From the NCBI RefSeq assembly GCF_029227855.1, contig NZ_CP074357.1: a stretch of 64,000 bases of DNA. The stretch is one strand, 5' to 3'. The position numbers were made by a program. The first letter of the stretch is position 1, and every line of letters begins with the position of its first letter. This document shows, piece by piece, positions 48,555-54,500 of the stretch. Source of the stretch: Escherichia coli (GTDB taxonomy: Bacteria; Pseudomonadota; Gammaproteobacteria; Enterobacterales; Enterobacteriaceae).

Positions 48555-51500
48555 TTAGGTAAAGTAACTTTTATCACTTCTAATAAAATGAAGGAGAATA
48601 TCGGATGTATTTAGCAGTGGGCTTGGCTTATGATTAAAGTTTTTCTCCGAACTTAATAAACAACTTTAAAAGACAGGCTATTACAATGCCTTTAGCCCCG
48701 AAAGGGGCATAAACTATTTTCAAATCCAGGCACAGTCTTTTTGTTGTGCCAATATTAATAATTACTCGCGAACAAAGGTCCACACACTCGCAGGAACTTT
48801 GTCATATAACTTTTTCATTGTCAGTTCGGCTTTACGATGATCATAAGCACCAGAAATTTCAAGAGAGGCGACACCCGAGTTTTTTTCACATAACCTTTCA
48901 AATACTTTTTCGAGCGTTTCGAACGAACTACACTTACGGAATTTCATTAAATAAGACTGCTTTGTGTCAGACATAATCAACCTTCTTTAGACAGGCCTCA
49001 ACTGGCCAGGGATAATCTTAATATCATTTTTCACTTAAGCCTAACGATTTCACAACCTTTTTCGTTGTTTCCACCCTGTTCATAACCAGGTACATGAGTG
49101 CTAAAATGACCTGTAATTAAAACCAGTGTATCCCGGTGAGCAGGATGAAGAATCAATCAGTGATCAGACAGTTTTCGGAAAGCGAATTGCATCAGCAGCT
49201 GGAAACGTTCGGCAACCATGATAAACAGCTTTCACGCTTGATCCGTTACTTTTCCCATCTGAGATACAACACTGCTAAAACCTATCTGCACTGGCTACGA
49301 GTATGGAACGAATGGTATCTGGCGAATGCCCGGTTGCATACAGACTGGCCAGTAAGTTCGCTCCCCGTGTCTGAGGACGCTCTGCTTGCGTTTATGGGGC
49401 ATCTTGAAGGCAAATTGTCACGAAGCAGCATAAACAGCTGTCTTCAGGCCTTAAATAGTATCCATAAAAAAGGGCTTAACCTGCCCGGGATTATTACGTC
49501 TGAAGCATGGTACATGCTGGAAGCCTTAAAACAATCGGAAGCCCGGAAGCGAAAGACGACTAAACAGGCAACTCCCTTTCTTATTGGCGATCTCAAGGCT
49601 CTGATAAAGTTACGCAGTACTACAAACTCAGTTCGTAAACTTCGTGACCTGTGCCTGATCTGGACAGGCTTTGAAACACTGCTCCGTTCATCCGAAATTC
49701 GACGTATACGTCTGAAAGATCTGTCTCTGGATAGTATGACCGGTGAATTTAACCTGACGGTATACCGTACAAAAACGAACATTAGTACACTTCTTACCTA
49801 CCGGCTGACACGTCAGTTAACTAACTGCCTCTTGAGATTGATGAACCTCGTGAAAATGGATCAGCACAGTCATCCGGATGAATTCCTTTTCCAGGCCGTA
49901 AATTTCCATGATACAGGCTATATGCCACCCGGCTGGAAGCTTCGGAGTAAGGGGAATGAGCTATCTGAACTTCTTAAAAGGCATAACCTACCCTATCGTG
50001 CTAAGCAAAGTCTTCTGAACGATGAAGATGAAGAAGACACTGTGGACGATGCCGGTATGCTCAGCAAAAATTCCCTTTTACGAGCATTTAAAGAGATGTG
50101 GAATGAGCTTTATCCAAATGAGACTAAAACTCGTTACTGGACAGGGCACAGCGTTCGTGTAGGCGGAGCGATACAGCTAAATATTGAAGGTTACTCGCTA
50201 CCACAGATTATGGAAATGGGGAACTGGTCGAATGAAGAAATGGTTATGCGCTACATTCGTAATATTGAAGCTGGTAAAAAAGCAATGATCAAGCTTATGC
50301 GAAATGCCTTTGATGAATAGCGCCCTCACGGGCGCATAACTTTATTTTTTCTTGAACGGGTTAAGTCTGGTGAGATTAGAGAGTGCCCCTCCCGGAGGCA
50401 AAATTCCCGTTCTTTTATATTTGTACACGCCATTTAATTTCATTGTCTGGATTCCAAGATTAATAAGCGTGACAAGTTTAAGGGTATACAGAAGTGTAAA
50501 TTGTGGAGCAACCTGAATAAAAACCAATAACAAGCCTGCACACATTACACGTAGCCATGCCGCGTACTCCATGCTCAGCGGACGCTTGAAATAGAATCTT
50601 TCGAGCAAATCAACTGTCTTATTACTGATCCACGCCGCCGCCACGGAGAGTAACAACACGATGCACACCATAATGCCCAGTTCCATTTTCACTCCCTTCT
50701 CTTTTAGTCTCTTTAAGTTGAGGCTTAGCCACAGTAGTTTTGTTTTTTGCTTTTTTCTTAGGTTTGGTATGATGAAACAGAAAACAATCCACCATTACCC
50801 AACCATTTTTATATCGAGCCACCAGCATCTTCTGGCTGGGGTAATGAGCATGAAACAGCATTTTCACGTCCATGGTGCCCATCAACGACTGTTTGCGCTT
50901 TAGCTCATCCTCAGCCATCTGAAATTCTTGTAAGAATTCTGAAGACAGACGCTGACGCAGGATTCTTATGGCACTGGAGTTTTCATCATTCTTTGCCAGA
51001 TGCCCGAAGCGTACTAGTGCCTTGTGGGTTATCTGGATGGGTCCCAGATGAGAGCTGAGCTGTTCGTACTGCCAGAAGTAGGTCAAATCCACCTTAACCC
51101 AGCTGATGCTGTCCAGCAGAGCCTCGTTCATGATGGTTCCGGACATTGGTACCATTGTCAGCCTGGCCAGACGCATATGTATGTAGTCCGTAAGCAACCT
51201 CAGCGACTCAGGAACGTTTTTATTGAGCAGGAGATGCTGAAGCACCGGGGTTGCGGTCTGCCAACACAGATTGCGCCCGTCAGGCAGGAAAGCAAACTTT
51301 TGATCGTCAGGCGCAGAGTTCGAAGCGTTTTCCTTACGAAGCAAAAAATAATGGCCGCACAGCAGCTCTGCTCTTACCTGGTCCTCGTCAGGGTCATGTC
51401 GGGCTTTACTTAGATCAACGGTAAGCACAACGCGGTTAATCGCATCAGCGTGATATTTTTTTACCCAGACACAGACACGATAGAGACGCTCATCGATTTT

Positions 51501-54500
51501 CTGGCTGGCTGTGGAAATCCATTGCATTGTTGTTCCTTAATTTTCGGGGCTGACAATGAAAATGCCCAGCTCAGCCCCCGGCACGAGTTCTGTATATTTC
51601 AGGCTCAGCTTCCGTTGGTTGGACGGGCCCTGGCTGTTTTCAGGAGCCCAGTCAGAGAGCGTTTTTAATTGAGGTATGTTGCCTGCTGCGAAAATGGGCA
51701 AGGATGCTTTTACTACTGAATAATCAGTCTCAGCATATTTATTCCCGTTTCGTTCCTGCCCTTCAGGCCTAAATGCAAAAATGTGAGCAATCGGAACAGG
51801 GAAAGAGTTAGTTCGACAAAGGCGATAAGATTCGCCCTGCTTCAGTGGGTGAAATTCAAGACGGTGTAAAGCCTTATCGATATTAGACACGACATTCAAA
51901 TTGGTAGTTGCTACATTTTTTACTTCTGAGGCTCTCCTGCGCTCCAACAAACTCACAAGTTGCTCTGCTGTTTTAACTTCCTGGTTTCGGTTTAGCCGCC
52001 ATGAAAAAGTAACTTTTTTAAGCTGGGACTTGATGAAAAGGACATTTCTTGTTGAGTGCATAGCGACAAGGCCCGGGAGCTTCTTGTGCACTTTATCAAA
52101 ACGGACATTCTTTTTATTATCGATACGCCTCATTGCCGCAGCAAAATCATTTTTTGCTTCATTTATAGATGTGATCAAGCTTTCGAGAAGATCTGCTCTT
52201 TCTGGGACAATGATAAGACCCGGGTATTTAGTGGTCACTTTGGTGGAATCATGACTTAATGACTCTATGTCATCCACACAGATGTCAGTAAGTGCCTGAA
52301 TAATTTCCTCAACCGAAGCATCGTCTTTAACACTAACCCTGATGGGTTTAACCTGCTTCAGTCGCTCTTCTGTTCGAGATACGGTGGAGACAGTCATCAG
52401 GTTTGCCATCAGCGGGGGGGTGTTCGAAAGAAAACACTTAAGCGAGTCGATACGTTCCAGAATCTGGTCACGAAAATAGGGCAAATCGTCATAACTCATA
52501 CGTTTCTCCAGGCTCATGTTATTTCAAATCAATTTTGCTGCCCTGGCTGACCTTGCAGAACATAAATGTCATGTAAACCTCTAAAGAAGTCATTTTGAAA
52601 CAGCTTTCACAGCATGCGATTTATGTTCGATAGGGCTCATGAACAAAGGATGATAATGGAGACGCCATGGATAGTGGATAGTCTTACCCACCTGGGTGAT
52701 CCGATTGAGGCGAAAACGACCATTTATACAGTCAACTGACCAAAGCCCGGGAGAAACTAACCTCTTCCAGCGGTAAAAAGAGAAACCTGCAACACAGAGG
52801 TCATGCTCCAGGAAATGTTGAGTTTCGACGACGCGAACTTTTATCAAAAACCCCAGCATTGGCGAAAACCAGATCAACAACCATGTTGGCGGCAGGATGA
52901 CTTTGTTCAGGAGATGATCTGTCATAAGCAAGGCAGATAACATCAGAAAACTGATAGTCAACCACAGGGCCATCCAACCGGCCCATACGCGGCTCTGACA
53001 GGGTTTCCATTCGAGAAGAAAAAGTTTTTTATGCATTCTGCCCCGCCTAATTTTAATGTATTGCCGAAGTATGCTGCATCATGATGGTGGTGCGGGGAAA
53101 GATTTCAAACTTCCACAATTCTGAAGCCGTGTTCCAACCATGAAAGATCCCGTCTCCACAGCGAGTGTTAAAAGCAAGAATTTCATCCCTGACCTGGTAA
53201 GCGAGCACTTCTGGCATATCAATAAATTCAGGTAAGGAAAGAAGAATCCCATGGATAACTTCTCCGGTTAACTTACTCATAACCTCTTCCTCAGACAGGG
53301 CAGCGTCCGGGAACAAACACGACGGAAGTGAAAAACAACATAGGTCAAGACCAAGAGCAGCCCTTCCTGCGTCGTAGCCTTCTTCATTAACGACAAAACG
53401 AAAGAATTTTTCAGCCTCACCCAGTAATGTTGACGGTCCTTCAGACGGAACTTCAATACCACTGAAGACTTTATCGGTCCAGTTGGTAAATGGACTGGTG
53501 AAAACCCAACAAATTAAGGATAACGCCAGCTCTTCCTTAAACATACGTTCAGTGCCGGTTGTTCTGGAAAGTTGCTTTTGAGTACTCATGTTTTACCTGT
53601 TGCATGAAATTATTGATGTTATATAAACACAACCGGCATTTTATCTAATAGGTTTGAAAACACTAAAAATCGCAAATGCTGGTACCTTTCTGTTTTAAGA
53701 GATTTTCAAGGTAAAGTGAGGCGAGATCAATTGGCTGGTTCTCTTCAAGACAGGCTCGCACAAGATCTTCAATAGAGACCGAATCAACCCCCCTTCCCTG
53801 TAAAATTTCTTTAGCAGATGCCAGCGTTTTATGAACGCTTCGACTTAGTTGTAATCTGACTTGTGTGCGGGTATCAAAAAGACAATCTTCTGTGACACTT
53901 TGTGAAACGGTTCTACTCATTGAAAAATCACTCCATTTCTGGGATCGAATGAAAATTAACAGCTATAGATGTATCAGGTTTCCCATTTTCTACGATACTC
54001 AACCACGTACGCGCTGAGATTTGTTGTTCACAGACGAGTATGTAACCTGTTCCCTGTTGATGATGTAGCTCAAGAGCTTTTAGGATAGGCCCTGAATGAG
54101 GTCCGAGAGCATCACGCGTGTGAATAAGCGTTTGCTCTGGCAATACGTTGCTAAGCATAGACAGCAGAACATTACGCTCATCCTCATTATCCGACAAAAC
54201 AAGAATTATACGAAAACCCGTTTTTATACGAAATCTGATCTCTGAAACTAACTTTCTTAATCTTAATTTATATATGACCAGGCGGAATCGAGTCATCAGT
54301 AAAGAAACCACTGTGAAGATAACGATTACTGCGCCATATTTTGACCTGTAGAACCACCAGTTAAGGCCTCCAGCAACTATCAGGATTAACATTAAAATTA
54401 AACTCCCATAGAAAAAAAGTGCTGGGTAGCGAGTTGTCTTTCCTTCAATTAGTGCTGAGGCAAATATCAAAATGGATATTCCGTAAATTACCCAGTCAAA

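Follow-up and report, generated by a model that had tools for sequence, protein, structure and literature searches.

The locus examined here raises the question of whether a Tus-like, terminus-binding protein encoded on a plasmid may act as a barrier to replication forks on its own replicon. It lies at 48762-52517 of a 64,000-nucleotide stretch of Escherichia coli DNA (assembly GCF_029227855.1, contig NZ_CP074357.1), hereafter the window. A first-pass annotation had placed an hha gene, a tyrosine recombinase gene and a tus-like gene in this interval, and all three open reading frames (ORFs) are present there, with strong family matches:

48762..48980, minus strand: hha-family gene (Hha/YmoA nucleoid-associated modulator), 72 amino acids (aa), a plasmid paralogue and the orthologue of R27 R0182
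49136..50320, plus strand: Cre-like tyrosine recombinase gene, 394 aa, orthologue of R27 R0183
51537..52517, minus strand: gene of a Tus-superfamily protein, 326 aa, recognised by PF05472, AlphaFold model, Foldseek and key residues; orthologue of R27 R0186

The best explanation of the locus as a whole, held with moderate confidence, is that the window carries an IncHI2 backbone whose Tus-like protein would form a lock-type barrier at a site of the plasmid's own, within a terminus module that includes the recombinase.

Family, fold and key residues of the Tus-like protein

The assignment of the 326-aa protein to Tus had earlier rested on the similarity of a short motif, and is now borne out by a Pfam profile, a predicted fold and key residues. 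Its match to PF05472 ('Ter') has an E-value of 4.6e-19 and a score of 69 bits against a gathering score of 22, and covers profile positions 10-208 of 296; single-sequence comparison with solved Tus is marginal (E 0.08). An AlphaFold2 model of the protein, built from 12 plasmid homologues (predicted local distance difference test, pLDDT, 78.7; predicted template modelling score, pTM, 0.70), displays the complete two-domain Tus fold, interdomain beta-strands included. When the model was compared with the PDB by Foldseek, the top four matches were all E. coli Tus (E 6e-18 to 1e-16; template modelling (TM) score 0.69-0.76; 324-331 columns), the best of them, at E 6e-18, having a TM score of 0.71/0.76 over 324 columns, i.e. 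over the full length, and the next match after these four had an E-value of 0.6. Since profile, predicted fold and key residues agree, the Tus call is solid. The protein truly belongs to the Tus superfamily, although it has diverged far, and is structurally intact in its predicted fold.

Residue conservation was followed in an alignment with E. coli Tus (from MG1655) and 20 diverse homologues. The superfamily-invariant positions S87, P95, G96, N118, R157, W172 and P258 are kept in the window protein, as are E49 (E51 of the window protein), K89 and R232. The cytosine-lock pocket is kept at F140, H144 and G149, with I79 replaced by V (V81 of the window protein); pocket and E49 are the same in five other close plasmid homologues, except for a change of I79 to T/S in two and of E49 to P in one. 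Most of the positions which we take to be the base-reading residues of E. coli Tus are changed (A173R, K175N, H176R, I177N, V234N, Q237V, Q250Y, Q252E); R198 is aligned with V, in a part of the alignment that is unreliable. With most of the presumed base-reading residues replaced, the target is expected to be a plasmid sequence that differs from the E. coli Ter consensus, and we infer from these residues that the protein binds DNA and is lock-competent, but recognises another sequence than E. coli Tus does.

The window protein thus shares with E. coli Tus-Ter (PDB 1ECR, 2I06, 4XR0) the two-domain fold, at a TM score of 0.71-0.76, along with the F140/H144/G149 cytosine pocket, E49, K89, R232 and W172. 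It differs in its low identity to E. coli Tus (15-17%), in the replacement of most presumed base-reading residues, and in being encoded on a plasmid, in linkage with a recombinase and an RNase H-like ORF; neither a Ter in the 5' untranslated region (UTR) nor a set of E. coli-type Ter sites on the replicon was found. The scores against the NCBIfam equivalogs NF002810 and TIGR02648 (53.1 bits against a cut-off of 323, and 20.9 against 178.3) are so far below the cut-offs that the protein is not an orthologue of chromosomal Tus; by sequence, it is a member of a paralogous plasmid clade. It is 59% identical to the Tus-like protein of R27, full-length plasmid orthologues are 46-65% identical in several lineages, and 80 columns are invariant among 12 plasmid sequences, which speaks for selection on the protein.

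Replicon identity and distribution of plasmid Tus

The stretch is an ordinary, already annotated segment of the IncHI2 backbone. Positions 48500-53000 are 100% identical to many plasmids of Salmonella, E. coli, Enterobacter and others, 679 records matching at an identity of at least 99%, and positions 39001-64000 are 100% collinear with several plasmids of 210-275 kb, including pAPEC-O1-R and pXJW9B277-HI2-N. These are the two matching records for which typing was looked up, and both are typed IncHI2A, MOBH and MPF_F. The IncHI2 assignment is one of backbone identity with typed plasmids, the replicon genes (repHI2 / repHI2A, at 1-876 and 208326-209414 of pAPEC-O1-R) falling outside the part collinear with the window. 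R27, the IncHI1 archetype, carries the matching block of hha, recombinase, two ORFs and tus. Because the window is identical to typed IncHI2A plasmids and the block is also present in R27, the first-pass annotation was correct in reading the three genes as markers of an IncHI-type scaffold; it had named a lack of significant similarity to Tus and an unrelated incompatibility group as its own refutation, and neither outcome was obtained, typing of the identical plasmids having given IncHI2A.

The window is like R27 (R0182-R0186), R478, pAPEC-O1-R and pSTM6-275 in genes, order and orientation, and no substantial difference from R27 and the IncHI2 relatives was found; the CoiA_N-like gene of the window is split by an element of the IS21 insertion sequence family. 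In the RefSeq annotation of identical plasmids all three genes start 6-9 codons further in, which is of no consequence. Rfam and tRNA scans of the window gave no match within the hha-recombinase-tus region. Elsewhere, an Rfam AgrB match (RF02891, 68.8 bits) was recorded at 8372-8459 on the minus strand, in the left part of the window, which is assumed to be an accessory resistance region.

A plasmid-borne Tus had been considered unusual, a view that is not tenable, as 2769 of 72,556 plasmid records carry a Tus homologue by tblastn, and the gene is a fixed backbone gene of IncHI plasmids. About 1130 of the Tus-bearing records are IncHI2-type (at least 80% identity). IncHI1-type homologues are ~59% identical to that of the window, and the remaining matches below 60% include Klebsiella plasmids at ~25% identity. 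Klebsiella contributes 1328 of the matching records, pLVPK-like IncHI1B/IncFIB virulence plasmids among them.

R0186 of R27 has had an annotation since 2000, which, as reproduced by PMC4853401, records similarity to the terminus-binding protein of Klebsiella. The three genes and the Tus-like annotation are already known, and what is added here is the conserved gene context. No paper characterising a natural plasmid-encoded Tus biochemically was found in the searchable literature. To our knowledge, no plasmid-encoded Tus homologue has been biochemically characterised.

Conserved gene order around tus

The genes that surround hha, the recombinase and tus are as follows:

~45993-47858, minus strand: IS21-family element splitting the CoiA_N gene, with istA-like 46810..47832 and istB-like 46031..46813
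47859..48431, minus strand: 5' part of the CoiA_N-domain gene (PF25164, E 2.5e-8), conserved neighbour of hha
50342..50692, minus strand: small hydrophobic ORF, 116 aa, no family match
50622..51527, minus strand: RNase H-like ORF, 301 aa, directly downstream of tus, orthologue of R27 R0185
52590..54518, minus strand: upstream of tus and within its syntenic block, four small ORFs of one direction, 148, 178, 85 and 196 aa, no family match

The 3' part of the CoiA_N-domain gene is found at 45360-45992; the gene is intact (1083 bp) in pAPEC-O1-R, and adjoins hha also in loci L014 and L016. The RNase H-like fold of the 301-aa ORF lies in its N-terminal part. The 116-aa ORF and the four ORFs upstream of tus gave no significant match in Pfam and NCBIfam, nor did the 116-aa ORF in PHROGs. 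An ORF of ~106-111 aa occupies the place equivalent to 50342..50692 in L014, L015, L016, R27 and Klebsiella plasmids, and ORFs corresponding in order and size to the set at 52590..54518 are present in R27, L014, L015 and L016.

The gene order is kept in IncHI1 and IncHI2, in the IncHI1B/IncFIB virulence plasmids of Klebsiella and in three other plasmid lineages, metagenomic or unnamed. It starts with a toprim gene, several paralogous ORFs of ~300 aa and small ORFs, followed by tus; after tus come an ORF of ~260-300 aa, an ORF of ~110 aa and zero to four extra genes, and then the convergent tyrosine recombinase, hha and the CoiA_N-domain gene. At least the core of this order (tus, the downstream ORFs and the convergent recombinase) recurs in all lineages examined. 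It is found in L014 (Tus cluster P0039), L015 (P0042) and L016 (P0044), and also in the Klebsiella plasmids L013 and L017, whose Tus is ~25-45% identical to that of the window; some of the loci showing the core order, though not all, also have hha and the CoiA_N gene. Such persistent linkage suggests a functional module.

Upstream of the tus block, on the minus strand at 55102-60108, is a run of five co-directional ORFs of ~290-320 aa, annotated as 'hypothetical' in the reference plasmids. These ORFs have the appearance of paralogues, and the run recurs in R27 and L014-L016. In L017 (pCR-HvKP4-VIR 130001-178154, a Klebsiella hypervirulence plasmid, IncHI1B/IncFIB) the hha-recombinase-ORFs-tus block has a group II intron inserted. 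L017 also has a ter (tellurite) cluster and three copies of the palindrome described below, against 0.00 expected; with block, cluster and palindromes together, this part of the virulence plasmid looks like an IncHI-type backbone.

The Cre-like recombinase and the Hha-family protein

The recombinase matches PF00589 (Phage_integrase; Pfam E 1.8e-13), and aligns with Cre of P1 across both domains (phmmer E 2e-23). Its catalytic hexad is complete (R184, K213, H338, R341, W364, Y373), the counterparts in Cre being R173, K201, H289, R292, W315 and Y324. In P1, Cre resolves plasmid dimers. The window recombinase resembles P1 Cre-loxP in both domains and in the full hexad, but lacks a lox-like 13-8-13 repeat in the adjoining hha intergenic DNA, and, unlike in P1 Cre, a LexA-like box is located in front of the gene:

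49111..49126, plus strand: LexA-box-like site CTGTAATTAAAACCAG (CTG-N10-CAG), in front of the recombinase start

The box lies just downstream of a -10-like TAAAAT at 49102-49107. A perfect CTGT-N8-ACAG occurs at the same place in R27, and a near-perfect one in L014, which suggests SOS control of the recombinase as judged from these motifs. Lox-like inverted repeats (arms of 11-13 bp, spacer of 6-8 bp) were absent from 48400-49200 and from the equivalent intergenic DNA of R27, L014 and L016, and the idea of a lox-like site beside the recombinase was dropped, none having been found in the hha-recombinase intergenic DNA.

A further element, unannotated in the records examined, was observed at window positions 22638-22890, where perfect 17-bp inverted repeats (TTGCATGTCCTCATCCC / GGGATGAGGACATGCAA; 22638-22654 and 22874-22890) bracket 250 bp. 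The repeats are identical in IncHI1 and IncHI2, and the interior is diverged. In the IncHI2 sublineage pKM72_1 (L018) homology to the window breaks off precisely where one repeat has its outer edge, and R27 differs in sequence just outside that same repeat, which thus sits at the border of backbone and variable DNA. The repeats may be a recombination site, and are a candidate target of the recombinase.

The 72-aa protein matches PF05321 HHA (Pfam E 9.3e-19) and solved Hha (4icg/1jw2; phmmer E 4e-16), and is annotated as 'Hha/YmoA family' in identical plasmids. Its score for the NCBIfam Hha subfamily is 75.6 bits, below the cut-off of 90, and it is therefore a diverged paralogue. The window hha is the positional orthologue of the R27 hha, and shares the Hha family fold and sequence with the Hha/YmoA-H-NS system that silences IncHI conjugation at 37 C; it differs from that system in its divergence and in the absence of an H-NS paralogue inside 48762-52517. 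Together with H-NS, the Hha of R27 reportedly keeps plasmid genes silent at this temperature (Forns et al. 2005, J Bacteriol). By analogy, the window Hha would most likely silence plasmid genes with H-NS at 37 C.

Search for a cognate Ter site

The first-pass annotation had further held that a plasmid Tus, if real, implies programmed fork arrest on the replicon. This is not supported, as no E. coli-type Ter is enriched or conserved and deletion of the R27 orthologue is without effect on stability; single deletions of R0182 (hha), R0183, R0184, R0185 and R0186 did not reduce R27 stability in E. coli (PMC4853401, Table S2). Ter-like sites were found to be neither enriched in the window, nor adjoining tus, nor common to IncHI1 and IncHI2.

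The window, the whole of pAPEC-O1-R and R27 were scanned with a position weight matrix (PWM) made from TerA-J. Within the window, GNRNGTTGTAAYKA with at most one mismatch gave one match against 1.7 expected and GTTGTAAC one against 1.5, i.e. no enrichment. The best matrix scores, 18.0 in pAPEC-O1-R and 17.4 in R27, are inside the range of 13.5-21 obtained on shuffles of the pAPEC-O1-R sequence. No E. coli-type Ter site is conserved between pAPEC-O1-R and R27, the consensus being that of E. coli, from which the plasmid's own may have diverged. Sites by E. coli consensus or matrix were consequently dropped, none being above the shuffle range and none conserved.

The site with the score of 18.0, GATATTTAAGTTGTAACTAATAT, is at pAPEC-O1-R 169199-169221 (L005:19199-19221), outside the window, and is the only E. 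coli-like Ter core (GTTGTAACTAATAT) in this IncHI2 plasmid. Its 3' 14 bp are those of TerC, and position 6 is T instead of G. It sits in the transfer region, between transfer genes near oriT, with no counterpart in R27. A tus gene and a 'potential ter site' have been mentioned for the IncHI2 plasmid pSTM6-275 (PMC5923156), and this is probably the same site.

Chromosomal tus genes have an autoregulatory ('vicinal') Ter in a 50-bp 5' UTR (PMC8707476). No Ter-like match was detected upstream of the window tus gene, and a vicinal Ter was dropped as a candidate since the alignment of IncHI1 and IncHI2 upstream regions shows no conserved block. Among 14-mers shared by six tus loci with at most two mismatches, only the palindrome described below, coding conservation of the recombinase (WTGHSVR motif) and AT-rich noise were recovered. 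GC skew, tried as a locator of the plasmid terminus, shows no clean switch, and was abandoned because it follows gene strand.

Polar fork arrest on enterobacterial plasmids has a precedent in R6K and R1/R100, the Ter sites of which are used with the host Tus and are reported to prevent multimers and rolling-circle replication. Those plasmids have Ter sites without a tus gene, whereas the window has a tus-like gene and no recognisable Ter was found.

A dispersed palindrome

The window holds 8 copies of the palindrome (A)AAAGTWACTTT(T), of 11-13 bp (extended: GAAAAGTWACTTTTC), where 0.06 would be expected; pAPEC-O1-R has 42 copies and R27 has 44. The copies of the window, 11 bp each, start as follows:

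18409, 27540, 32133, 56199, 59770 and 63515: palindrome copies
48561..48571, no strand: intergenic copy, between hha and the CoiA_N-like gene
52006..52016, no strand: copy in the tus gene, encoding K-V-T-F of the invariant strand LKKVTFSW

The tus genes of R27, L013/L017, L014 and L015 contain the palindrome too, its place in the gene being one of three, and a link between palindrome and Tus was therefore tested. Half of all palindromes are intergenic though intergenic DNA amounts to 19%, and many are 50-300 bp upstream of gene starts; the ~81-148 kb part of pAPEC-O1-R, with its resistance and metal-resistance genes, has only two copies. A 394-aa protein with a ParB helix-turn-helix (ParB-HTH; PF17762 above cut-off) is encoded at L005:36449-37633 on the minus strand, and in IncHI1 and IncHI2 a palindrome lies ~100 bp upstream of its own gene. 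KorB acts via OB operators on RK2, and the palindrome together with the ParB-HTH protein as candidate binder looks, by analogy, like a plasmid-wide operator system of the KorB/OB type. The literature search gave no paper quoting the palindrome sequence in an IncHI context. As a polar Ter-like site the palindrome was rejected, for it is symmetric, its central base is without replichore polarity, and the ParB-HTH protein is a candidate binder.

Proposed mechanism and rival explanations

The Tus-like protein would bind DNA as a monomer, like E. coli Tus, and could act as a polar barrier of the lock type against a helicase that arrives from one side, since the flipped-cytosine pocket (F140, H144, G149, V81) and the equivalent of E49 are kept. 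Conserved residues and context make a lock-type polar barrier at a plasmid site its most likely role. The constant linkage of tus with the recombinase suggests a plasmid 'terminus' module, which would combine fork pausing with multimer resolution or recombination in the manner of chromosomal Tus/Ter with XerCD/dif; the module would be accessory and not essential, because deletion of the R27 orthologue left stability unchanged. A bolder version, considered rather unlikely, takes tus, the RNase H-like ORF, the small ORF, the LexA-controlled recombinase and hha as a self-contained terminus module, in which a lock-competent Tus paralogue would pause forks at a plasmid site and the recombinase act nearby, possibly at the 17-bp repeat element; the clade could then represent the kind of element from which chromosomal Tus-Ter was domesticated.

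Several observations weigh against a lock-type barrier on the plasmid. No cognate Ter was found, and the upstream regions of IncHI1 and IncHI2 tus have no conserved block, unlike chromosomal tus; the best E. coli-like site, at 169199, is within the shuffle range, without G6 and absent from R27. The protein scores far below the NCBIfam Tus equivalog cut-offs (53 against 323 bits), the alignment at R198 is unreliable, and the base-reading residues are presumed ones. The literature search gave no experiment in which any Tus homologue of a plasmid was shown to bind DNA or to arrest forks, and the lack of a stability phenotype of the R27 deletion would fit no replication role at all (PMC4853401).

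It is unlikely, though worth weighing, that the Tus-like protein is no longer a terminator and has been re-used as a sequence-specific roadblock or regulator, for instance on the AAAGTWACTTT palindrome, and would then affect transcription, helicases of the conjugative or RecBCD type, or the compaction of the plasmid. The strong enrichment of the palindrome in the window and on both plasmids would agree with it, as would the copies at three non-homologous positions inside tus of IncHI2, IncHI1, L014, L015 and Klebsiella plasmids, the failure to find a classical Ter, and the centre GTAACT, which equals positions 13-18 of E. coli Ter. However, the palindrome has the two-fold symmetry expected of a dimer's target, whereas the sites of Tus are asymmetric and are bound by a monomer; no replichore polarity is seen at the central base, and the lineages with the palindrome differ in the strand-F residues taken as base-reading. 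The ParB-HTH protein, whose own gene is preceded by a palindrome in IncHI1 as well as in IncHI2, is the better candidate binder, and the intergenic position of half of the copies, many of them shortly upstream of gene starts, is operator-like.

That plasmid Tus acts on host chromosomal Ter sites, or on the single E. coli-like Ter of IncHI2, so as to supplement or interfere with host Tus, appears very improbable. The conserved lock pocket, the core GTTGTAACTAATAT at pAPEC-O1-R 169199 and the 'potential ter site' of pSTM6-275 (PMC5923156) are in its favour, but the identity to E. coli Tus is only 15-17%, most presumed base-reading residues are replaced, the 169199 site is not kept in IncHI1, lacks G6 and is within the shuffle range, and the hosts already encode Tus. 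Hardly credible is the view of the tus gene as a decaying, functionless relic hitch-hiking in the backbone: the R27 deletion without stability phenotype and the failure to find a target site would fit it, yet more than 1100 IncHI2 plasmids carry an intact ORF of full length, as do lineages in which identity falls to ~25% and the neighbours are the same, 80 columns are invariant among the 12 plasmid sequences, and the predicted fold is complete and confident.

Significance

The finding types the molecule as having an IncHI2 multidrug and metal-resistance plasmid backbone, which is of epidemiological use and not new. There is a modest chance of something more interesting in the Tus target site and the conserved module. 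Tus homologue genes are carried on ~4% of sequenced plasmids, among them IncHI resistance plasmids and the hypervirulence plasmids of Klebsiella. The target site, once found, would provide an orthogonal Tus-Ter pair for biotechnology, would show how multi-replicon plasmids of 200-300 kb finish replication, and would bear on the origin of the enterobacterial fork trap.

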